Origin: an uncultured Candidatus Saccharibacteria bacterium
GTDB lineage: Bacteria; Patescibacteriota; Minisyncoccia; Phycocordibacterales; DATDWN01
Length of the DNA stretch: 64,000 bases
Direction: 5' to 3'
Assembly: GCA_964551495.1 (NCBI GenBank)
Contig: CAZKCA010000002.1
Location: 19,648 to 83,647 of the forward strand
Shown here piece by piece: positions 4,589-60,917 of this stretch. Every line of letters starts with the position of its first letter. Positions within the stretch are counted from its first letter, which is position 1. Both the position numbers and the translations under genes were made by a program. The notes beneath the pieces are model-generated. The model did no database searches. It worked only from the letters and a program-made list of their open reading frames with translations, and had not been told where the DNA came from.

Positions 4589-5032
4589 ATGAAAGTCATA
4601 TTACTTAAAGATGTTGCTAAAATAGGAAAAAAGTTTGATATAAAAAATGTTGCTGATGGTTATGCTTTAAATTTTCTTATACCTAAGAAATTGGCTATAT
4701 TGGCTACAAAAGAAGCTGTTTCTAAAATAGAGGAATCCAAAAAACTCCAAACAGCAGAAAAAAATATCCAAGCAGAGCTTCTACTCAAGAACTTAGAGAC
4801 TTTGGCTTCATCTAACGTTGTTATTAAAAGTAAAGCTAATGAGAAAGGGCATCTTTTTGCAGGGGTAGATAAAAAAGAATTAATTGCAGAGATAAAAAAA
4901 CAAGTTAGGTTAGACATTCCAGAAGATTTAATTGAATTAGAAAAACCAATTAAAGAGGTAGGGGATCATAAAATAAAAATGTCATTTGAAAAAAAGAAAT
5001 TTGAGATGACTGTAAAAATAGAAAATATATAA
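4589..5032 (+). CDS. rplI: 50S ribosomal protein L9
   Basis: [36 protein letters not shown] is a typical L9 N-terminus. 147 aa. Confidence 0.95.
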
Positions 5033-5033
5033 C

Positions 5034-5061
5034 AAAAAACTCCCAGAAAGGGAGTTTTTTG
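5034..5061. terminator. bidirectional rho-independent terminator between rplI and rpmA
   Basis: ACTCCC-agaaa-GGGAGT hairpin flanked by an A-run and a T-run. Confidence 0.75.
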
Positions 5062-5334
5062 TTATATTACATTAACTACTTTTTTTATTACTGTTTTATT
5101 ATTGAAGTGAGTTTTTCTTTTTGTTCCAAACTCTATTTTACCTTCTTTTAGAGCATAAAGAGTGTGGTCTTTACCCATACCAACATTTTTACCTGGTAAA
5201 ACATCTGTTCCTCTTTGTCTTACAATAATAGAACCAGCAAAAGCTTTATCACCTGATGTGACTTTTACACCCAAATACTTTGGATTTGAATCTCTACCGT
5301 TTTTACTTACACCGGCTGATTTTTTATGTGCCAT
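5062..5334 (-). CDS. rpmA: 50S ribosomal protein L27
   Basis: [25 protein letters not shown]...IIVRQRGT is canonical L27. Confidence 0.95.
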
Positions 5335-5821: not shown

Positions 5822-6412
5822 TCATTCTTCAGTGTTGGTCTTGCATGGCAAGACCGGACAGATCCCGAAGGGGCGATCAGGGAACTTCTTGCAAAACCTT
5901 TTCAAGGTGGTCACAGTGATTCCTTTCTCGTCACTGTAGACTGTGAGGAATTCTCCTCGATGTTTTTGCGGACAAACAAGTCCGCTTTCGGCGTATCGAA
6001 TTCGTGGAGATTTCACTCCTCTGGATCTTTGGATTGCAAAGGATGCAGTTTCTGAAAACAGATACTGCATAACAGTTTGACATTTGAAAGAATGAAATTG
6101 TTCAGGAGTCCCTCTGAACTCAGGATGAATTTCAAATCCGAAAGGAAAACAAACTATTTCCTCTTCGGAAGAAGGGTCAACCTCGATTCCGTTGTCAACA
6201 TTTATGATGACGCCGAAATTTATCAGAAACAGGTCCAGCGCATCAGCAAAATGAAGCCTGGATGTCACAACTGGCTCTGCTTTGTCAAAGTAGGCCAGGG
6301 TATGGTTTCTCACAGAGATCGAATGGGGAACTCGTAGATTTTCCCCAAATAGATCAAGAATGCTTGTAATTCTTGTTGGCCATCCACCAACTAAGGCGAC
6401 AGCAGCTGACAT
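5822..6412 (-). CDS. hypothetical protein, GC-elevated accessory gene
   Basis: 196-aa ORF with no family recognised by eye. It is visibly more GC-rich than its flanks and has its own terminator. The antisense ORFs at 5807..6055 and 6077..6337 are shadows of it. Confidence 0.5.
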   Translation of the reverse strand: MSAAVALVGGWPTRITSILDLFGENLRVPHSISVRNHTLAYFDKAEPVVTSRLHFADALDLFLINFGVIINVDNGIEVDPSSEEEIVCFPFGFEIHPEFRGTPEQFHSFKCQTVMQYLFSETASFAIQRSRGVKSPRIRYAESGLVCPQKHRGEFLTVYSDEKGITVTTLKRFCKKFPDRPFGICPVLPCKTNTEE

Positions 6413-32179: not shown

Positions 32180-32204
32180 TAAAATAAGTAAGATGCCCAA
32201 TAAA

Positions 32205-32241
32205 AAATAAACACAGCATATTTTTGCTGTGTTTATTTTTT
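32205..32241 (+). terminator. rho-independent terminator
   Basis: AAATAAACACAGCA-tatttt-TGCTGTGTTTATTT followed by a T-run. Confidence 0.75.
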
Positions 32242-34017: not shown

Positions 34018-37000
34018 TTAGAACTCCCTGTATATCAAAGGCTTGAGAGAAAATACAGCTGTGACAGTTTTAGGTGAATTTATTGTCAAAACACAGTTTC
34101 CAGTACCAGAACAATCCCCTTGCCAACCAACAAATCTCCAAGCGGAAGAATCTGGATAAGGAGTTAAGGTAACAACAGTACCAGAAGCATAATTTCTAGA
34201 ACAATTTGATCCACAGTCTATCAATGTATCAACACTTTTAACAGTTCCACCATAAGTTTTGAAAACTTCCAAGTTATGAGTTGTATTAGGAGTAATAGTT
34301 ACAGAGTCACTATCCCCTCCTTCAGTATTTGAACAGGTTAAAGTATAAGTTGTATTGTTTATTATTCCATTTATATCCTCACTACCTCCCAATACAGATT
34401 TTGATCCACTCCAACCACCAGATGCTGTACAACTAGTTGGATTTCCCGTTGTAGACCAAGAAATAGTTGTGGATAGAGGAGCATTACCTGTTGTTGGATT
34501 ACCACTTATTGTTACAGTAGGAACTGTTCCTTGTTTTTGCCAAGTCAATCCATACCCAGCCCCACCTCCATTTTCATACATTTCATAAACAAGAGTTCTC
34601 TGGCCAGCAGATAATACAACAGGAGAACCTGAGGTGCTTCTTATTGCATGGTCAGACCAATCATTTACCAAATATCCACTATCTGGAACACCATCGTTGT
34701 TATCATCAAAATATGCACGAGAACCATCATCTGACGCCGTAGTAAATACATATGTTCCAGCTGTAAAATTGAATCTTCCTTTCCATCTTACAGAATAAGT
34801 ATCTGTCAAAGTTCCTGGACCAGCAGATCCCCAGTCAACATTCGGCAGAGGTGAAGCTGTATTTGGTACAGGAGAAGCTAGGACAGGTCCAGTTATTGGA
34901 TTTATAGCAGCTAAAGTATTAAATGCAGTTCCTGTATAAGCACAACCATACATTTGATTTGTCCCTACTGTGGCAGGGTTACAAGAACCACCTGAGGCAG
35001 CTCCGACAGTAACTGAAGCATACCTTGTTACAGATGCTGGAGAAGCGTCAGCTCTATCACACCTTATACCAAAAGTATAATTTGAGCTTGGAGATACATC
35101 TGTATAACCACCACTTACACTCTTTGATCCGCTCCAACCAAACCCAGTTCCATTATACGCATAACAAGAAGTTGGGTTTCCCGTTGTAGACCATGTCAAT
35201 CTTGAACTATTTCCGGTTGTTATAGAAGAAGGTGTTGCTGTAAATGTTAATCCTATAGTAGGAGAAGATATAACAGGTACGGATACGGAAGTCGCACAAC
35301 CAGCATCTTTTCTTATTTCTATAGTATAAGTTCCTGTTCCAGAAAGAGGATAAACGTTTATTTGATTTGGTCCTCTATAAGTTGTAGGAACATTAAAACC
35401 ACTAGGACTATAAGTTATAGAGGCATTGTCTATTTCTGATTGTGTCCCGAAATTACCATAAATTATAAGGTAGCCGTTCATGTAAACTTCTGGAGTGTAC
35501 ACACCTGTACTAGCATTATAACCGTTATATCCGCTGACACTAAAGTTACAAGCATTAGGATTTACTTTGACAGCAACAGAATCCACAACATCAGCAGTCC
35601 CAGATTTACTACAAATTATATTGTAAGTATAAGTTCCAGCGGTTAAACTAGATCTTAATTCAGAACCACTAGGTACTGATTTGGATCCAGACCAATAACC
35701 AGAAGCTGTACAACTAGATGGACTCCCAGTTGTAGACCAACTAAGTGTTGTTGAGTTTGTAGGTAGGGTCATATTTGTTCTAGAAGCAGAAAGGTCCACA
35801 GTTATAGGAGAAGTTGCCCCAACTGTTACTGTGGCATTTGCAGAAACAGGAGAAAGACCTGCTTTGCTACATGTAATACTGTATGTATATGTCCCTGCGC
35901 TAGGAATAGAAACACCCTGACTTCCGCCGGATGTAGACCTAGACCCAGTCCATGCTCCACTAGCTGTACAACTATCTGGAGCACCTGTTGTTGTCCAAGT
36001 AAGTGTAGAAGAGTTTGAAGGCCATGTCATAGATGTTGGGCTAGCAGACAAAGTCACTCCTATAGAAGCTGGAGCAGATAGATTTACTGTAAGAGTAGCC
36101 AGCGTTCCTCCAGCTGTTGTATCTCCTCTTCTTTGCAAATAAAATACAGTTCCATTGGAAACATTGGACACAGCAACACTTCTACTACCTGAAAGATGCT
36201 GAGCCTCTAGTGTTCCAGAAGTACTTCCCCTTCTTACATCGTGATCACAATTTACATCAGAATATATAGTTGTAGCACCAGTTGCATTTGAAGTAACTAT
36301 TGGATTTGGGTTAGCATAAAAATTTGTAACAGAACAAGTTGGCTGAGTAACAACAACAGTGGCTTCTTTGTAATAATCCGCAACACCAGTCTTTGTACAA
36401 GTTATTCCATATGTATAAGTTCCAACAGTCAGACTAGATCTTACCTCTGAACCACCCGCTGTACTTTTTGCCCCACTCCAAGCTCCACTAGCTGTACAAC
36501 TTTCAGGATTTCCTGTTGTAGACCAAGTAAGTGTTGTAGAGTTTGTGGGTAGTGTCATAGATGTTGGAGTAGCTGAAAAATCTACAGTAATAGGTTCTGG
36601 TGGGACAGGACCAACTCTTGTAGCCATTGTCACTGGTCCAACGTCTCCATCGTTTGCCAAAGACATACCAATAGAAACAATAACTGTTCCAGCAGGGGCT
36701 CTTAGAACTCTTTTTAATGAGCTAATTGATGGATATCCATGTAACCTACAACTCCCTATATAAGGATCCTCCCAGCCTTTATATCCTGCGGTGTTATTAT
36801 TCCCAATATCAACAAGACTTGCATATTCTTGATAATAACAAGGTTTTTCTGGTGAATCATCTATATATGGACTAGCACTACCCATACCTCCAGAAGTAGG
36901 CCTTCCGGATCTTGTTCCCCATGTCCAACCAACAGCATATCTTCCTGTTTGATATGGAGCTCCTGGGTTTGCCGGGTCATTTCCTGGACCATTTGTACAA

Positions 37001-37239
37001 GTTATACTTGTAGATCCTATAGAATTAAAATTTATAGTTCCATCTGGATTCACTGGGGCGTATAAAATAGACAAAGTACAAGCCTTGTCGTCTGAACCAT
37101 ATCCTATAGCAGTTAGCCCACTACCCTCGGGAACAGTCATAAGTGCTCCAGAGTCATAATAATTTTCGGCATTGACTGATGATAGCCCCGCAAAAAATAA
37201 AATTGATGCTAATAAACAAATTTTTAATAATCTTTTCAT
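34018..37239 (-). CDS. 1073-aa secreted surface protein: unknown N-domain, five ~80-aa Ig-like repeats, PA14 domain, C-terminal InlB B-repeat-like domain
   Basis: Signal peptide MKRLLKICLLASILFFAGLSSVNA. The repeats carry a conserved TLTWSTTGNP-SCTASG-WSG-KS...GTYTY-I-C pattern at aa 217-298, 393-474, 478-559, 661-745 and 906-983. PA14 lies at aa ~760-903 (YSVRWKGRFNFTAGTYVFTTASDDGSRAYFDDNNDG...GYGLTWQ). The C-terminus reads GTVVTLTPYPDSSAWRFVGWQGDCSGTGNCVLTINSPKTVTAVF. Confidence 0.85.
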   Translation of the reverse strand: MKRLLKICLLASILFFAGLSSVNAENYYDSGALMTVPEGSGLTAIGYGSDDKACTLSILYAPVNPDGTINFNSIGSTSITCTNGPGNDPANPGAPYQTGRYAVGWTWGTRSGRPTSGGMGSASPYIDDSPEKPCYYQEYASLVDIGNNNTAGYKGWEDPYIGSCRLHGYPSISSLKRVLRAPAGTVIVSIGMSLANDGDVGPVTMATRVGPVPPEPITVDFSATPTSMTLPTNSTTLTWSTTGNPESCTASGAWSGAKSTAGGSEVRSSLTVGTYTYGITCTKTGVADYYKEATVVVTQPTCSVTNFYANPNPIVTSNATGATTIYSDVNCDHDVRRGSTSGTLEAQHLSGSRSVAVSNVSNGTVFYLQRRGDTTAGGTLATLTVNLSAPASIGVTLSASPTSMTWPSNSSTLTWTTTGAPDSCTASGAWTGSRSTSGGSQGVSIPSAGTYTYSITCSKAGLSPVSANATVTVGATSPITVDLSASRTNMTLPTNSTTLSWSTTGSPSSCTASGYWSGSKSVPSGSELRSSLTAGTYTYNIICSKSGTADVVDSVAVKVNPNACNFSVSGYNGYNASTGVYTPEVYMNGYLIIYGNFGTQSEIDNASITYSPSGFNVPTTYRGPNQINVYPLSGTGTYTIEIRKDAGCATSVSVPVISSPTIGLTFTATPSSITTGNSSRLTWSTTGNPTSCYAYNGTGFGWSGSKSVSGGYTDVSPSSNYTFGIRCDRADASPASVTRYASVTVGAASGGSCNPATVGTNQMYGCAYTGTAFNTLAAINPITGPVLASPVPNTASPLPNVDWGSAGPGTLTDTYSVRWKGRFNFTAGTYVFTTASDDGSRAYFDDNNDGVPDSGYLVNDWSDHAIRSTSGSPVVLSAGQRTLVYEMYENGGGAGYGLTWQKQGTVPTVTISGNPTTGNAPLSTTISWSTTGNPTSCTASGGWSGSKSVLGGSEDINGIINNTTYTLTCSNTEGGDSDSVTITPNTTHNLEVFKTYGGTVKSVDTLIDCGSNCSRNYASGTVVTLTPYPDSSAWRFVGWQGDCSGTGNCVLTINSPKTVTAVFSLKPLIYREF

Positions 37240-40766: not shown

Positions 40767-40896
40767 TTAAATGAAATCTCGTTGAGGCACTGTATTTTTG
40801 GAGACTTCGCAAGCGCGACGGCGCGAGACCGAGCAAAATTTCAGCAGAAATTTATGCGTGCTCCAAAAATACAGTGCCGAGAAAGAGATTTCATTT
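40767..40896 (+). repeat. nested-hairpin palindromic element, family 1, copy A
   Basis: 13-bp outer stem (TAAATGAAATCTC/GAGATTTCATTTA), internal loop, 18-bp perfect middle stem (GGCACTGTATTTTTGGAG) and a 57-nt core ACTTCGCAAGCGCGACGGCGCGAGACCGAGCAAAATTTCAGCAGAAATTTATGCGTG. Confidence 0.85.
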
Positions 40897-42829: not shown

Positions 42830-42849
42830 AGTTTTTAGATTAAGTTAGG

Positions 42850-42980
42850 AATCAATAAATCCTTGCCTTGCCATACCTTTTGTGGAGCACGCATAAATTT
42901 CTGCTGAAATTTTGCTCGGTCTCGTGCCGTCGCACTTGCGAAGTCTCCACAAAAGGTACGACTTCGACGTGATTTATTGA
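42850..42980 (-). repeat. nested-hairpin palindromic element, family 1, copy B (inverted relative to the other copies)
   Basis: The reverse complement carries the same core with a compensatory pair change (GCGC..GCGC becomes GTGC..GCAC). It has unique outer (ATCAATAAATC) and middle stems. It lies 21 nt upstream of the dnaK ATG. Confidence 0.85.
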
Positions 42981-43024
42981 TAACAAATTTTTAAGATCGA
43001 ATAATTTAAGTAGATAAATTAAAT

Positions 43025-43161
43025 AATTCAAAACATTCGCAGGTTTTTGGCTGAAATAAAAGCGAGAAGCGCCAGCCGGAGACACTGTCTGAGCGTAGCG
43101 AGTTTGGCGAGAGGCCAGCTTTGAGTGCTTTATTTCACAAAAACCGAGGACGTTTTGAATT
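43025..43161 (+). repeat. nested-hairpin palindromic element, family 2, copy 1
   Basis: Outer stem AATTCAAAAC/GTTTTGAATT. Conserved unpaired ATTCGCAGG and CCGAGGAC. Inner stem TTTTTG..TGAAATAAA(A)GC / GCTTTATTTCACAAAAA. GC-rich centre. Confidence 0.7.
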
Positions 43162-43169
43162 GTTTACAT

Positions 43170-43478
43170 TTAGCTGATCTTATAGGATGGAGCGCGAGGT
43201 TTTGAACCTAAGAAAGATAGAATATTAAAATCAAAATATGGAGAAAGTATTTTATGATCTTTTTCTTTTTCTACCTCAAACTCAAAATTATCTTTAAGTG
43301 TCTCAAGACACAAAACTTCTTTATTTTCCAAACTTTCATCTAAGTAAACCACATTTAAAAGTCTAGCTTTTACTCTCCCGGATTCTTGGTACACACAAAA
43401 AGAGGCCCTGACAAGTCTTCCATCCTTGTCCCTCAAAACTTTTTCTATTAGATTGCCTCTAGGAGTTGTTATTTTCAT
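43170..43478 (-). CDS. hypothetical protein
   Basis: ORF-track 43170..43490 begins at TTG, so I prefer ATG 43478 (MKITTPRGN). A TATAAT lies on the minus strand at 43500..43495. No family was recognised. Confidence 0.5.
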   Translation of the reverse strand: MKITTPRGNLIEKVLRDKDGRLVRASFCVYQESGRVKARLLNVVYLDESLENKEVLCLETLKDNFEFEVEKEKDHKILSPYFDFNILSFLGSKPRAPSYKIS

Positions 43479-43523
43479 AATAGTTAACAAGTAAATTATA
43501 CCAAAGACTTCCCTATTGTGTAG

Positions 43524-43570: not shown

Positions 43571-43876
43571 ATGGCTCTGAAAAAGAGATTGAAAGATATT
43601 GAGGCTTTACTTGCAATTTTAACACAAGGTTGGAGTGATCAAAAAATATTCCAAGAATCTATACCTCAATATTCAGCTCTTGATGATACTCACGAGTACA
43701 CATTAAACTACGGGTGGGCAGGTATTATTAACAACTTAGCAAAGTTACTAGGTTTTGAACCTTATATCAAAAAAGCTCATGAACCAACCATCACTTCAAG
43801 CAAATTAGATTCTCTAATAAGTGAAGCAGAATGTTTTATTGATTTTTTTGAGGAGAATACCAAAAGCGGCCAATAG
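43571..43876 (+). CDS. hypothetical 101-aa protein
   Basis: Strong promoter and SD. It converges on grpE. No family was recognised. Confidence 0.55.
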   Translation: MALKKRLKDIEALLAILTQGWSDQKIFQESIPQYSALDDTHEYTLNYGWAGIINNLAKLLGFEPYIKKAHEPTITSSKLDSLISEAECFIDFFEENTKSGQ

Positions 43877-44488: not shown

Positions 44489-44527
44489 AGAAAGAATACT
44501 ACCAAAAGTTACTAAATTTTCAAACAA

Positions 44528-44649
44528 TTAAATCTTATTGAGGTATGGTATTTTTGGAGACTTCGCAAGCGCGACGGCGCGAGACCGAGCAAAATTTCAG
44601 CAGAAATTTATGCGTGCTCCAAAAATACTATACTGAAAAAGAGATTTAA
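44528..44649 (+). repeat. nested-hairpin palindromic element, family 1, copy C
   Basis: The core is identical to copy A. The stems are different but complementary (TTAAATCT/AGATTTAA and GGTATGGTATTTTTGGAG/CTCCAAAAATACTATACT, the latter with two G:T pairs). Confidence 0.85.
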
Positions 44650-44665
44650 TGATAAATATAAACCA

Positions 44666-44691: not shown

Positions 44692-44718
44692 TTAACGTTT
44701 TGACCACTGTGGAGCCTT
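44692..44718 (-). pseudogene. relic duplicate of the rpsI 3' end (KAPQWSKR + stop)
   Basis: The minus strand reads AAG GCT CCA CAG TGG TCA AAA CGT TAA. The live gene end is AAG GCT CCA CAG TGG AGT AAG AGA TAG (44836..44810). The first 15 nt are identical and the remaining codons, including the stop, differ only by synonymous changes. Confidence 0.55.
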
Positions 44719-44809
44719 ATTGCCGAAGCACTGAAGCAAAGCTTAGTACTCGACTGCGGAAGACTAACGTAATTTGAAATAATTACAGACTACCGAATAG
44801 ACAGTAAAA

Positions 44810-45208
44810 CTATCTCTTACTCCACTGTGGAGCCTTTCTTGCCTTCTTTAGACCGAATTTTCTTCTCTCTTTCATTCTTCCATCTCTCTTTAGAAAACCT
44901 TCTCCTTTTAGAGTTTTTCTAAAATCTGCATTAAATTTAACGATGGCTCTTGCTATACCGTGTCTTAGTGCCTCTGATTGTGAGTGAATACCCCCACCTA
45001 CTATTTTGGCTGTTATTTTAAATCTTTCATCTACTTTTGTAAGAGGCATTTTAGAGATAAGTTCCATCTCACTTGTAGGAAAATAGTCTTTTATATCTTT
45101 ATCATTTACTGAAATGGTTGTTTTTGAAGAAGGAGAAATTCTAACTCTGGCAACAGATGTCTTTCTTCTTCCAACGGCTCCTGTATATTTTGTATTTTTA
45201 TCTTCCAT
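44810..45208 (-). CDS. rpsI: 30S ribosomal protein S9
   Basis: GGGIHSQSEALRHGIARA...RDGRMKERRKFGLKKARKAPQWSKR. Confidence 0.95.
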   Translation of the reverse strand: MEDKNTKYTGAVGRRKTSVARVRISPSSKTTISVNDKDIKDYFPTSEMELISKMPLTKVDERFKITAKIVGGGIHSQSEALRHGIARAIVKFNADFRKTLKGEGFLKRDGRMKERRKFGLKKARKAPQWSKR

Positions 45209-53369: not shown

Positions 53370-53491
53370 AAACAAACTCGTTGAGTTGATATGATTTTGG
53401 AGACTTCGCAGTCGGGTAGACGAGACCGAGCGATTTTTCAGCAGAAAAATACGCGTGCTCCAAAATTATATCAATGAAAAAGAGTTTGTTT
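53370..53491 (+). repeat. nested-hairpin palindromic element, family 1, copy D
   Basis: Outer stem AAACAAACTC/GAGTTTGTTT, loop GTTGAG, middle stem TTGATATGATTTTGGAG/CTCCAAAATTATATCAA (one G:T). The core is diverged, with the hairpin ATTTTTC-AGCA-GAAAAAT. Confidence 0.8.
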
Positions 53492-56029: not shown

Positions 56030-57238
56030 TTAAATTATAGTTTCCATTATTCCTCCTCCGAGACATTTTTCTCCTTGGTAGAATACAGCGGACTGACCTT
56101 TTGCTACTCCATTTTGGGGTTTTTCAAAAGAGATTTTATAACCTAATTCTAACTTTTCTACCTTACAATTTTGTTTTTCTTGTCTGTATCTTATCCTAAC
56201 CTGACAATTTAAAGGAAATTCTGGCTCTACCCCATCTATAAAATGAATATCTTTTATAAAAATCTCTTTTGTATTGAAAACTAAATCTAGCTGATTTTCT
56301 TTGTCTGCTACAGTTATAGTATTTTTTTCTAGGTCTTTTGACACAACAAAAAAACTTGGGTCATTTGGAGTCTTTTTGGTAATAGTAAATCCATGTCTTT
56401 GACCTATGGTATAAAACAGTGCCCCATCGTGAATCCCAACAACCTCTCCTTTGGAATTTAAAACATCTCCTTTTTTAGTTTCAATGAAGTGTTCAAGAAA
56501 ATCTTTCATATCTACTTTTCCAATAAAACAAAGTCCTTGGCTATCTTTTTTTGTGGCCGTAGGAAGACTAAACTTCTCTGCCAGTTTTCTAACTTCTGGT
56601 TTTGTTAAGTGTCCTACAGGGAAAAGTGTTTTTGAAAGCTGTTCTTGGTTTAAAGTGTAAAGAAAATAACTTTGATCTTTATTTTTATCATTTGATTCAT
56701 GAAGTTCAAACCTATAGTTTGATAAATCTTGTTGAGACAAGAGGTTTCTGAAACATTGCGAGCGCGACGGCGCGAACACGAGGAATTTTTCAGCAGAAAA
56801 ATATCCGTTTTCAGAAACCTCTTGAGGAGAAAGAGATTTATCAAATACCAAATTCTGAGCATAGTGTCCTGTGGCTATAAAATCAGCCCCCATCTCTTTG
56901 GCTTTATCTAGAAAAACTCCAAATTTTACATACTTATTACAAAAAACATCTGGATTTGGAGTCCTACCGGCTTTGTATTCAGAAATCATATAGTCAACTA
57001 CTTCTTTTTTATATTCCTTCTCACAATCAATAGTTAAAAATGGGACATCCAAAATGGCACAAACTCTCATAGCACTTCTCCTTTCTTCTTTCCAGTCACA
57101 AGGTAAAAACTCTGGATGCCAAACTTTTAGAAAAACCCCCATGACGTCAAAACCGGCTTCTTTAAGCAAAGCCAAAGAGACAGAAGAGTCCACTCCGCCT
57201 GATAGACCAACAAAAACCTTTGGCTTTCTATTTTCCAT
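56030..57238 (-). CDS. mnmA: tRNA 2-thiouridine(34) synthase MnmA, carrying a ~37-40 codon in-frame insert derived from a palindromic element
   Basis: VGLSGGVDSSV PP-loop, ATGHYAQ, KDQSYFLY and GLCFIGK. There are 58 residues between ATGHYAQ and KDQSYFL, whereas my recollection of characterised MnmA proteins is ~20. A TATAAA lies 7 nt upstream of the ATG. Confidence 0.95.
   Translation of the reverse strand: MENRKPKVFVGLSGGVDSSVSLALLKEAGFDVMGVFLKVWHPEFLPCDWKEERRSAMRVCAILDVPFLTIDCEKEYKKEVVDYMISEYKAGRTPNPDVFCNKYVKFGVFLDKAKEMGADFIATGHYAQNLVFDKSLSPQEVSENGYFSAEKFLVFAPSRSQCFRNLLSQQDLSNYRFELHESNDKNKDQSYFLYTLNQEQLSKTLFPVGHLTKPEVRKLAEKFSLPTATKKDSQGLCFIGKVDMKDFLEHFIETKKGDVLNSKGEVVGIHDGALFYTIGQRHGFTITKKTPNDPSFFVVSKDLEKNTITVADKENQLDLVFNTKEIFIKDIHFIDGVEPEFPLNCQVRIRYRQEKQNCKVEKLELGYKISFEKPQNGVAKGQSAVFYQGEKCLGGGIMETII
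56720..56841 (+). repeat. nested-hairpin palindromic element, family 1, copy E, located inside the mnmA coding sequence
   Basis: Outer stem GATAAATCT/AGATTTATC, loop GTTGAG, middle stem CAAGAGGTTTCTGAAA/TTTCAGAAACCTCTTG. The core is CATTGCGAGCGCGACGGCGCGAACACGAGGAATTTTTCAGCAGAAAAATATCCG. Confidence 0.78.
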
Positions 57239-57278: not shown

Positions 57279-57462
57279 AATCAAAAACATACACGAGAAA
57301 ACCATTCGCAGACTTTTGTTTAAGATAACAACAATTTTTTCTAGCCGTGAGCACTAACCCCTATGAAATAAGGGGCGACCGAAGGGAGTTTGCGGTAAGG
57401 CAGAAAAAATTGTGCTTTATCTTACAAAAGACGAGGACGGTTTTGGAGGTATGTTTTTGATT
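57279..57462 (+). repeat. nested-hairpin palindromic element, family 2, copy 2 (four stacked stems)
   Basis: Stems are AATCAAAAACATAC/GTATGTTTTTGATT (14 bp), AAAACC/GGTTTT, CTTTTG(tt)TAAGATAA/TTATCTTACAAAAG and ACAATTTTTTCT/AGAAAAAATTGT (12 bp). Conserved unpaired ATTCGCAGA and ACGAGGAC. Confidence 0.7.
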
Positions 57463-59738: not shown

Positions 59739-59770
59739 ATGTGTTTATATAATTATACAAAATAATAAAC

Positions 59771-59797
59771 AAAAAACCACCCGAAGGTGGTCTTTTG
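59771..59797 (-). terminator. rho-independent terminator
   Basis: ACCACC-cgaa-GGTGGT with flanking A and T runs. Confidence 0.65.
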
Positions 59798-59798
59798 T

Positions 59799-60917
59799 TT
59801 AAACTAGAGTATATTTACCGTCTTTTAATTTTTTAAATACTTTTGAATTTTGAAGATTGACCATAATAGTATTCTCTTTAACATATCTCTCTTTCAAAAC
59901 TTTTTCGACAATTTCTTCTTTTGTTAAAGGTCCATTTTTCTTTAATATATCCTTTATAACATCTTTAACAACACCAGACATATAGCCCCACTCTGCAAGA
60001 GCGTAAAGACCTCTTCCCACCAAAACAAAACGAGGGTCTTTAATCAACTCATTGTGGGTAGTAGCAACATGAGCTTTTTTCTTAAATATTTCAGTAATTA
60101 ATTTAGCAACTTCTTTAAAGTGTATAGGGGAACCATGTCTTCTTATCACTAGGTAAGAATAATCTCTCATTCCCTTAGCATTGATATTTGGAGAAGTCGA
60201 TTTACCCCATTCACCAAGAGGATTTTTACCTATAAGTTTTGACAAAGCCAACCATCTTTTAGCAACTTCTTCTGTTTTGTATTTTTCAGAAACATCTTTT
60301 AGGTGTTCTAAAAACTTCTCTATCATATCTGATTCAAGCATTATCTCGTCATCAGACAAAGTTGAATAAAGAGTTTTTATTGCCTCATGAATTTTTTTTG
60401 AAAGATCCTTATCTACATGCCATCTATGTTTGAATTCTGCATCTTCTTTTTCTTTGAAGAAAGCGTCTCCTACAACAAAAAGAAAATGAACATGATTTTG
60501 AGTAGATTTGTTTTTTGATATATAACTCAAAAGATCTTCTTCAGAAATTACAACACCCAAATCATGAATTAAATTTTTTAATTCTTCAAATACAGATTTC
60601 TCCTTTTCGTATTCTTTTGACTTTCTAATGTTGGTTATAGAATAATTTTCTATTTGTCTTATTCTTTCTCTGGTAATTTTGTATTTTTTACCAATAGACT
60701 CTAAGGTCATTCTTTTTGGATCACTGCCCAAACCAAAACGACCGATTATAACATCTCTTGACCTAGGAGAAAGCACAGAAAGAAGTCTTTTGGTTACTTG
60801 CTCTGGTTTAAAATTTATAGGTAATTTTTCACTCATAATTTTAATTTTTTTAATTAAGTTGCTTTTGAAGGACAACGAATGTTTACTATTTTTATCATTA
60901 TTATCAAATATAGTCAA
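59799..60917 (-). CDS. DNA-binding protein with sigma-70 region-4-like HTH and C-terminal HARE-HTH-like domain
   Basis: RSRDVIIGRFGLG...TLESIGKKYKITRERIRQIENYSITNIRK is region 4-like. The C-terminus SPIHFKEVAKLI...LIKDPRFVLVGRGLYALAEWGY follows the HARE-HTH pattern. The start may be M28 (ATG 60836). Confidence 0.6.
   Translation of the reverse strand: MTIFDNNDKNSKHSLSFKSNLIKKIKIMSEKLPINFKPEQVTKRLLSVLSPRSRDVIIGRFGLGSDPKRMTLESIGKKYKITRERIRQIENYSITNIRKSKEYEKEKSVFEELKNLIHDLGVVISEEDLLSYISKNKSTQNHVHFLFVVGDAFFKEKEDAEFKHRWHVDKDLSKKIHEAIKTLYSTLSDDEIMLESDMIEKFLEHLKDVSEKYKTEEVAKRWLALSKLIGKNPLGEWGKSTSPNINAKGMRDYSYLVIRRHGSPIHFKEVAKLITEIFKKKAHVATTHNELIKDPRFVLVGRGLYALAEWGYMSGVVKDVIKDILKKNGPLTKEEIVEKVLKERYVKENTIMVNLQNSKVFKKLKDGKYTLV

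Follow-up and report, generated by a model that had tools for sequence, protein, structure and literature searches.

Two conserved-core hairpins beside dnaK and mnmA in a Candidatus Saccharibacteria genome: members of a possible family of small mobile elements in Patescibacteria

The DNA analyzed here is a 64,000-nucleotide stretch of a contig from an uncultured Candidatus Saccharibacteria bacterium (hereafter the window), in which two copies of a nested hairpin element, termed family 2, occupy the leader of dnaK (copy 1, 43020-43166) and the spacer between mltG and mnmA (copy 2, 57279-57462). Copy 1 is accompanied in the dnaK leader by copy B of a second hairpin type, termed family 1, and with the further family-1 copies the window holds seven elements, all of which lie between 40 and 58 kb, with none in the tightly packed left half.

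The two family-2 copies are homologous, with 76% column identity, and differ mainly in an additional 18-nt hairpin in copy 2 (57358-57375). An nhmmer profile of 31 homologues, all from other organisms and including no window sequence, matched the window solely at 43026-43159 (E 1.5e-24) and 57299-57445 (E 4.7e-42). A covariance model scored copies 1 and 2 at 117 and 152 bits, respectively, with the rest of the window reaching at most 16.4 bits, the best of these values being the opposite-strand reading of the same two copies. The relationship between 43025-43161 and 57279-57462 proposed in a preliminary description of this DNA is thus confirmed by an independent profile, a covariance model and the alignment. 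The exact 8-mers ATTCGCAG (43035 and 57304) and CGAGGACG (43145 and 57432) occur nowhere else in the 64 kb. When one mismatch is permitted, each is found at chance frequency in this AT-rich sequence and a lone end 8-mer is therefore uninformative, so that the shared motifs are specific against the background in combination but not singly. The predicted folds of copy 1 (-53.4 kcal/mol, z -5.5) and copy 2 (-65.5 kcal/mol, z -8.2) were each equaled by none of 200 dinucleotide shuffles. The hairpins had been located correctly, but their copy-specific palindromic arms reach beyond the motifs first noted, and in copy 2 residues 57279-57302 pair with 57440-57462.

The family-2 element consists of a conserved core of ~120-135 nt, bounded by C-AUUCGCAG and CGAGGAC-G, which is carried by a basal stem, 13-32 bp long and 88% Watson-Crick, that is a near-perfect palindrome and differs from copy to copy. 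A C:G pair forms the sharp edge of the core, and similarity between copies stops there. Immediately inside it is a junction module, in which C-A-UUC-GCA-G is paired with C-GA-GGA-C-G. The end motifs, previously described as unpaired, are in fact partly paired through UUC:GGA, including an invariant U:G, although GCA/GA does remain an internal loop. Above the module, stem P2 holds an invariant UUUU/AAAA and is followed by the covarying stems P3 and P4. The apical domain comprises P5 (GCC/GGC), a GA-rich 4 × 4 internal loop (GUGA/GGAA), P6 (GCR/YGC, with R:Y covarying) and a three-way junction made up of a variable hairpin, a 2-bp mini-hairpin and a conserved GAGUY. Both P5 and P6 covary, the third P6 pair being A:U in 16 and G:C in 6 of 22 sequences. 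There are two subtypes: subtype A includes copy 1 and the elements of L048/L077, L064 and L079 (homologous loci are denoted by L numbers), whereas copy 2 and the majority of the others are of subtype B. The hairpin base of copy 1 reads TTCAAAAC/GTTTTGAA and that of copy 2 GAAAACC/GGTTTTG, with CUGAR/UGAAG in many other copies.

Among 33 non-redundant sequences, 93.9% of the cells at paired positions can pair, whereas column shuffles reach 73.5% and slid controls 42-57%, and compensatory double changes occur in 29 of the 37 pairs. The arms covary as well as the inner stems, in agreement with the earlier proposal that the paired arms differ yet stay complementary. The "invariance" of the end motifs is partly circular, because the search patterns imposed them. 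The window plus strand folds better as RNA and bears the invariant U:G and the purine-rich loops, and its identification as the folded strand is moderately supported. Apart from the invariant U:G, the variable stems contain 26 G:U and 10 A-C cells and the outer arms 19 G-T and 13 A-C cells, numbers small enough that the stems are essentially Watson-Crick on both strands. When the registers of the GCA/GA and GUGA/GGAA loops were compared by hand with that of a kink-turn, no canonical fit was obtained, the register of P2 being set by the covarying pairs 22-146 and 27-141. A pseudoknot between AUUCGCAG and the apical CUGCGGAA was rejected, as the complementarity, judged by eye, is lost in subtype A and in GUCCGCGG variants.

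The preliminary description had named an absence of further copies elsewhere as grounds for refutation; ~40 additional family-2 copies were found. Scanning one genome per GTDB species for the exact pattern produced 53 matches against a rough chance expectation of ~44, among them four unmistakable homologues, all in Patescibacteria: L012 (Zambryskiibacteriota), L027 and L032 (Saccharibacteria) and L048 (Paceibacterota). A looser pattern, lacking the central motif, was used for Joint Genome Institute (JGI) metagenomes and gave 41 matches, of which 34 are genuine. The covariance model R1 scores the family-2 copies of the four GTDB genomes and 34 metagenome contigs at 105-174 bits, and recovers extra copies at L057:2572-2720 and L070:1853-2007 that had escaped the pattern because an end motif is mutated to CATTCACAG. 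The hosts are Paceibacterota, Zambryskiibacteriota, Saccharibacteria and metagenome contigs resembling the candidate phyla radiation (CPR), so that within the collections searched family-2 elements are restricted to Patescibacteria; the MnmA protein of the window itself has a relative at 77% identity that is annotated as Candidatus Paceibacterota. Pattern scans of viral contigs yielded two family-2 chance matches, both of which fail the model, and zero family-1 matches; a phage-borne element was rejected on the lack of any model-passing viral copy. Genomes hold several copies each: L057 and L070 both have two within 2 kb, and a 14.5-kb stretch of L072 contains one family-2 copy along with four of family 1. 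At L066:512-580, a locus shared with L063 and L076, two tandem orphan 5' family-2 core ends (CATTCGCAGACTTTTT and CATTCACAGATTTTT) lie ~100-300 nt from a complete copy and look like remnants of earlier insertions.

Family 1 also folds around a three-way junction, composed of P1, the 5' strand ACUUCGCAAG, a short hairpin, GACCGAGC, a second hairpin with an AGCA loop and the 3' strand AUGCGUG. The outer termini of its stem are conserved (AAATCTCGTTGAG...GAGAAAGAGATTT), and the segment in the middle varies. Besides the window, family 1 is present in L048/L077, L065, L069, L072 and L096. The copies at 40770-40894 and 44526-44650 have (near-)identical cores and conserved outer termini, and between them a discrete 8-12-bp segment varies yet stays complementary. 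The same pattern is seen between L099:2195-2400 and L100:6040-6230. Among these pairs, one such segment reads GGCACTGTA/TACAGTGCC versus GGTATGGTA/TACTATAC, and this part of the family-1-type stem looks like a hypervariable but paired window.

The proposal that the two families are diverged members of one superfamily was borne out only in part. Direct matches between the models are not significant: the family-2 model scores the family-1 copies at 11-13 bits (E 0.16-0.7), no better than plain hairpins, the family-1 model gives no match to the family-2 copies at E <= 1, and a joint alignment of the two cores is without statistical support by itself. Hybrids nevertheless link the families qualitatively. 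The element at L069:128-340 places a family-2 apical arm on a family-1 three-way scaffold (5' CAUUGCGCAG, second hairpin, 3' AUGCGUG) and is matched by both models (E 4.6e-5 and E 0.003), and in those at L094:7635-7729, L091:7750-7848 and L102:1219-1370 the family-2 type motifs CNUCCGCAG and (C/U)GAGGAC occur together with a second hairpin and termini like those of family 1. Common to both families is the module UUCGCA(R)G ... CGAG, positioned where the strand enters and leaves the main arm. A modular superfamily comprising families 1 and 2 is therefore supported qualitatively. The two different elements reported in tandem upstream of dnaK are real, and the divergent pairing of a family-1 with a family-2 element recurs in L072 and L077; the spacing of 44 nt given for copy B is an upper value, the actual distance being 30-44 nt depending on where its arm ends. 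The pairs concerned (window 42842-43166, L072:8340-8635 and L077:9055-9339) are 30-60 nt apart and may reflect either crowding into a few spacers or a composite unit.

Comparison of orthologous sites revealed extensive turnover. The mltG-mnmA spacer carries the subtype B copy 2 in the window, a subtype A element with different arms in L095, and a larger family-1b composite in L099 and L096. In the dnaK leader, where the window has copy 1 and family-1 copy B, L101 contains a copy-1 orthologue interrupted by the contig end, L102 (1219-1370) has a third variant and L100 (~6240-6400) has that same variant reverse-complemented together with a family-1b copy; the L100 and L102 elements are 84% identical as reverse complements versus 61% in the same sense. 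The rpsI-grpE spacer contains a family-1 copy in the window, flanked by at most a TTT repeat, and is empty and non-palindromic in L100 and L101, from which it follows that the element brings its arms along. The same empty site led to rejection of the idea that elements insert into the loop of a terminator palindrome already in place, and the three relatives with differing mltG-mnmA elements have no arms in common; core-less ("empty") long hairpins do occur in the window. Gain, loss, replacement and inversion across orthologous sites are thus the behavior of a mobile repeat rather than of a locus-bound regulator.

Insertion within a coding sequence is observed in mnmA (56030-57238, minus strand), where a family-1 insert at 56724-56839 lengthens a variable surface loop by ~30-40 residues; in other CPR MnmA proteins this loop contains unrelated insertions. 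The insert is intact in the window and in L096 (540-800), with its inner part constituting 30 codons in frame. Between these two alleles one arm substitution is compensated (G:C to A:T), and five of the eight nucleotide differences are non-synonymous. In L095 (440-600) exactly the inner 90 nt are missing between 5-bp CTCAA direct repeats, and in L099 (2896-2958) the element is truncated at the same site with only its left part kept. L095 was rejected as a true empty site because it retains the outer termini of the element, and since L099 keeps a different remnant, both alleles are deletion derivatives. The mnmA insert is read as an old insertion that is decaying by hairpin-stimulated deletions. 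Arms that overlap the last codons of recJ, uvrC, dnaE and topA suggested that one arm might be an inverted duplicate of the native gene end. This idea was not supported, as RecJ C termini diverge exactly at the arm start and the shortened mnmA allele lacks both arms. Cores are identical in L065 and L094, with a near-identical one in L060, and L069 and L075 form a near-identical pair; these loci derive from one metagenome, and apparently from a single genome or population, but have unrelated 20-30-bp arms and different neighbors. Possible explanations are gene conversion with the core ends as anchors and an exchange confined to the core.

Table 1. Hairpin elements of the window, their parts and an adjacent promoter-like site
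Feature	Positions	Strand	Basis or remark
Family-1 copy between dnaK and dnaJ	40770..40894	+	-59.6 kcal/mol, z -9.9; 73-nt core identical to that of the 44526 copy
Family-1 copy B, sense in the dnaK leader	42842..42990	-	inverted repeat; family-1 model 105.4 bits; 30-44 nt from copy 1
Sigma-70-like site TTGATA-17-AATAAT	42977..43005	+	consensus match only; would place a transcription start immediately ahead of copy 1
Family-2 copy 1, subtype A, complete hairpin (arms and core)	43020..43166	+	43020-43034 paired with 43152-43166 in the minimum free energy fold; covariance model; nhmmer
Copy 1, copy-specific 5' palindromic arm	43020..43033	+	partner 43153-43166; weaker pairing out to ~42996 and ~43190
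Copy 1, conserved core	43034..43152	+	alignments; edges C-ATTCGCAG (43034-43042) and CGAGGAC-G (43145-43152); P2-P4 and apical three-way junction
Family-1 copy between rpsI and grpE	44526..44650	+	spacer empty in relatives L100 and L101
Family-1 copy, diverged	53373..53490	+	85.1 bits
Family-1 copy in frame within mnmA, antisense to the gene	56724..56839	+	96.8 bits
Family-2 copy 2, subtype B, complete hairpin (arms and core)	57279..57462	+	fold; covariance model; nhmmer
Copy 2, conserved core	57303..57439	+	P5 GCC/GGC, GUGA/GGUAA internal loop, P6 GCA/UGC, three-way junction
Copy 2, variable apical-junction hairpin CCCCUAUGAAAUAAGGGG	57358..57375	+	subtype A has a short 4-bp hairpin there instead

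The elements are almost always found in short spacers at gene ends, and occasionally in frame within a gene, with the stem commonly starting 0-30 nt past the stop codon of a flanking gene. The neighbors are ordinary housekeeping genes and include grpE, dnaK, groES, groEL, clpP, recA, recJ, recR, ruvC, uvrC, dnaE and topA. An all-against-all BLAST of ~200 flanking open reading frames (ORFs) found no recurrent neighbor, and a role as cis-regulator of one particular gene was rejected on this result. Orientation is not fixed: in tandem-gene contexts 11 copies are antisense and 5 sense, and the flanks of 20 loci have a negative GC skew when read on the element strand, those of 14 a positive one. 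A replication-strand bias was rejected on the latter split, although the right half of the window is all-plus. A promoter-like site precedes copy 1 (Table 1) and none was found before copy 2; strings of the -10-like form xxTAAT, as read by eye, lie 12-19 nt before the core in about one-third of the copies. A terminator scan called nothing at the 3' end of copy 1 or copy 2 on either strand, and the U-tract signature of a terminator is missing from the element ends. The arms had also been considered as guides to other loci, which was rejected since no arm has a second match within the 64 kb. Beside copy 1, between grpE and dnaK, are two small, divergent accessory ORFs (43170-43490, minus strand, and 43571-43876, plus strand) with no Pfam match; L100, L101 and L102 have similarly sized homologues in the same position.

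Several other features of the window were recorded. At the extreme end of rpsI, an insertion of ~115 nt (44695-44810) is flanked by the 9-bp direct repeat CCACAGTGG; the recoded last codons AGTAAGAGATAG, which it provides, and the displaced ones TCAAAACGTTAA both specify SKR-stop. It contains CTTCCGCAGTCGAGTAC, which corresponds to two junction motifs back to back, and no long hairpin (z -0.1 on the plus strand and -2.7 on the minus strand). Perfect core-less hairpins with 17-18-bp arms, 4-6-nt loops and a flanking A-tract and T-tract are located at 5027-5067, 32202-32241 and 59750-59817 and are probably bidirectional terminators of this genome. At ~31-33 kb the GC skew changes sign and gene orientation changes from plus to minus, so that genes converge, with all seven elements to the right; the switch point at ~32 kb could be a replication terminus or a simple strand switch. 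Tandem coding repeats at 34377-36594, with units spaced 258 and 528 nt and 62-74% identical, belong to a 1073-residue ORF (34018-37239).

Comparison with characterized RNAs produced no identification. Rfam 15 has no match at gathering thresholds in the 64 kb; at E <= 10, copies 1 and 2 and family-1 copy B give noise only (best 20.5 bits, from snoRNA, miRNA and sRNA models far below their gathering scores), and the hybrids and variants in L069, L072, L094 and L099 give nothing. ARAGORN found no tRNA or tmRNA gene in the window, and literature searches returned nothing on such elements in CPR bacteria. Conserved junction nucleotides combined with covarying stems are typical of small ribozymes, and the family-2 elements resemble the ribozymes represented in Rfam 15 (hammerhead, twister, twister-sister, hatchet and pistol) in this respect and in being multi-copy and context-free, but no model matches any variant.

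Among repeats, the closest parallels are palindromic. Rickettsia palindromic elements (RPEs) are hairpin repeats of ~100-150 bp that form several families in reduced genomes, encode no protein and occur both in spacers and in frame within protein-coding genes. The family-1 copy in mnmA behaves as an in-frame RPE; however, RPEs show no similarity in sequence and belong to another host clade, and the elements described here have a complex core (three-way junction, GA-rich loops) common across CPR classes and a copy-specific basal stem. ERIC/IRU, Correia (NEMIS) and similar repeats that resemble MITEs (miniature inverted-repeat transposable elements) are imperfect, non-autonomous palindromes of ~120-170 bp found in transcribed spacers in either orientation, and they fold as RNA hairpins that can influence how an mRNA is processed or how stable it is. 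In a classical MITE the terminal inverted repeats are conserved, the target site is duplicated and a related insertion sequence (IS) exists. In contrast, the termini of family 2 are copy-specific, the core ends CATTCGCAG and CGAGGACG are not mutual inverted repeats, and there is no evident duplication and no known IS partner, whereas family 1 does carry conserved outer termini.

Other parallels concern DNA that may act as a folded single strand. Repetitive extragenic palindromic (REP) sequences and REPINs are built from a 20-40-nt palindromic unit tagged GTAG/CGTC, usually in inverted doublets, and are mobilized by RAYT transposases. Together with the palindrome-associated transposable elements (PATEs) derived from IS200/IS605 they share with the present elements the character of multi-copy extragenic hairpin repeats, and are thought to act as folded single strands that need a nuclease in trans. 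The present elements lack the GTAG/CGTC tag and the 20-40-nt unit, and no RAYT or TnpA gene was seen nearby. Unlike IS200/IS605 ends, they have no paired subterminal hairpins, and their orientation is untied to the replication strand (as the skew split and the inversion between L100 and L102 indicate). Integron attC sites are similar in that stem sequence varies while structure and a few positions are kept, in their variable terminal structure, and in that many basal stems here read ...AAAAC / GTTTT...; they differ in that the RYYYAAC / GTTRRRY consensus is not matched, the neighbors are housekeeping genes rather than cassettes, and the conserved part is a large internal core, the reverse of attC. 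Small palindromic repeats such as RPE, ERIC and REPIN are already known; what is new here is a complex core conserved across classes, together with copy-specific stems and modular variants.

Given the documented homology, structure, multi-copy distribution, turnover at orthologous sites, in-frame insertion and decay, copies 1 and 2 may be members of a superfamily, spread across Patescibacteria, of small mobile hairpin elements that are non-autonomous and share a structured conserved core, a reading on which we are evenly balanced between belief and doubt. Such elements would spread, or exchange cores, with the aid of a trans-acting factor that reads the conserved core, presumably through the junction module UUCGCA(R)G...CGAG and the apical three-way junction. 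Dependence on this partner would account for a core sequence that is constant across CPR classes. Inserted elements would be carried passively and, if transcribed, would form very stable hairpins at mRNA ends that the host may tolerate or mildly exploit.

A number of observations weigh against this interpretation. No transposase, reverse transcriptase or other partner candidate was identified among the ~200 flanking ORFs compared. No true empty/filled pair was recovered for any family-2 copy, and family 2 has neither conserved terminal inverted repeats nor a clear target-site duplication. The maintenance of so elaborate a core between Saccharibacteria and Paceibacterota is unusual for selfish DNA. 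Moreover, the copies at the dnaE locus (L027/L063) and the recJ locus (L032/L074/L090) keep their synteny between genera, and their arms have changed in a compensated manner, as would be expected of a functional RNA passed on by vertical inheritance; identical cores on differing arms could result from gene conversion and not transposition; and heat-shock and DNA-repair genes appear, as judged by eye, to be over-represented among the neighbors.

The main rival to the mobile-element interpretation is a family of small, processed structured RNAs, in which the core would be an independently expressed, trans-acting ribonucleoprotein scaffold or ribozyme, the copy-specific stem an RNase III-type processing stem that frees it, and the genes duplicated and homogenized by gene conversion. 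This would suit the strongly covarying core conserved across CPR classes, the invariant U:G, the purine-rich loops on one strand and the excess of G:U over A-C in the variable stems (26 to 10), and stems of at least 20 bp would be ideal double-stranded RNA substrates. The compensated divergence of syntenic copies fits as well, as do the promoter-like site before copy 1 and the -10-like strings in about one-third of the copies. Yet no promoter or terminator is conserved, because similarity stops at the core edge, and nothing promoter-like precedes copy 2. The lack of a fixed orientation relative to genes or GC skew, the inversion at one orthologous site, the copies within an ORF, the decay by deletion, the replacement of one member by another in a single spacer and the scarcity of G:U in the stems (~2%) also argue against it, and we consider such an RNA family unlikely, though far from negligible. 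It is rather unlikely that the structure is instead one of DNA, that is, a folded single-stranded recombination site comparable with attC, REP or IS200/IS605 ends and read by a recombinase or HUH nuclease. The overwhelmingly Watson-Crick stems, outer arms with no G-T/A-C asymmetry (19 versus 13), the sharp element edges, the cores seemingly swapped between stems and the modular look of the inter-family hybrids are all consistent with such a site, but the flanking GC skew shows no strict strand bias (20 negative, 14 positive), direct reading finds no attC R''/R' consensus, REP GTAG/CGTC tags or paired subterminal hairpins, and no integrase, RAYT or TnpA gene was seen adjoining any copy.

A host cis element at gene boundaries, whether a factor-assisted and perhaps bidirectional terminator, an mRNA 3'-end stabilizer or processing site, or a regulator of a stress regulon of heat-shock and DNA-repair operons, seems quite improbable to us. 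Stems that mostly begin 0-30 nt after a stop codon, the great stability of the hairpins and the presence of heat-shock and DNA-repair genes among the neighbors would be expected of it; the lack of a U-tract terminator signature at the element ends, the occurrence of both orientations with inversion at one site, close relatives with the same spacer empty or filled by another element, the absence of elements from the tightly packed left half of the window and the copy inside the mnmA coding sequence would not. The probability that two AT-rich hairpins merely resemble one another by chance is practically nil: single 8-mers with one mismatch do occur at chance frequency in the window, but profile E values of 1e-24 to 1e-42, ~40 homologues and covariation far above shuffled and slid controls refute it. 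A bolder form of the mobile-element interpretation, which we regard as rather doubtful, would see here a new class of mobile element, in which the core is active nucleic-acid machinery, either a small ribozyme or an RNA or DNA that partners an unrecognized CPR enzyme, and installs or exchanges itself atop long palindromic stems, and in which the hypervariable complementary segment would be a specificity or guide-like determinant and not drift.

The minimal genomes of Patescibacteria, ~1 Mb in size, contain hardly any non-coding DNA, and despite this the sampled contigs carry up to five to seven structured elements per 15-20 kb. The two models built here, one for each family, permit an immediate census of them. 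The elements explain odd CPR annotations, such as spurious small ORFs and "long" protein variants, of which the length variants of mnmA are an example. Should the core be an RNA machine or a protein-binding scaffold, it would represent a widespread new class of structured RNA missing from Rfam, and the finding would be considerably more interesting if the elements were indeed processed trans-acting RNAs. If they are selfish, inserting in frame, remodeling spacers and promoter-proximal regions, and inverting, much genome plasticity in a quarter of bacterial diversity would come from a source that has gone unannotated.

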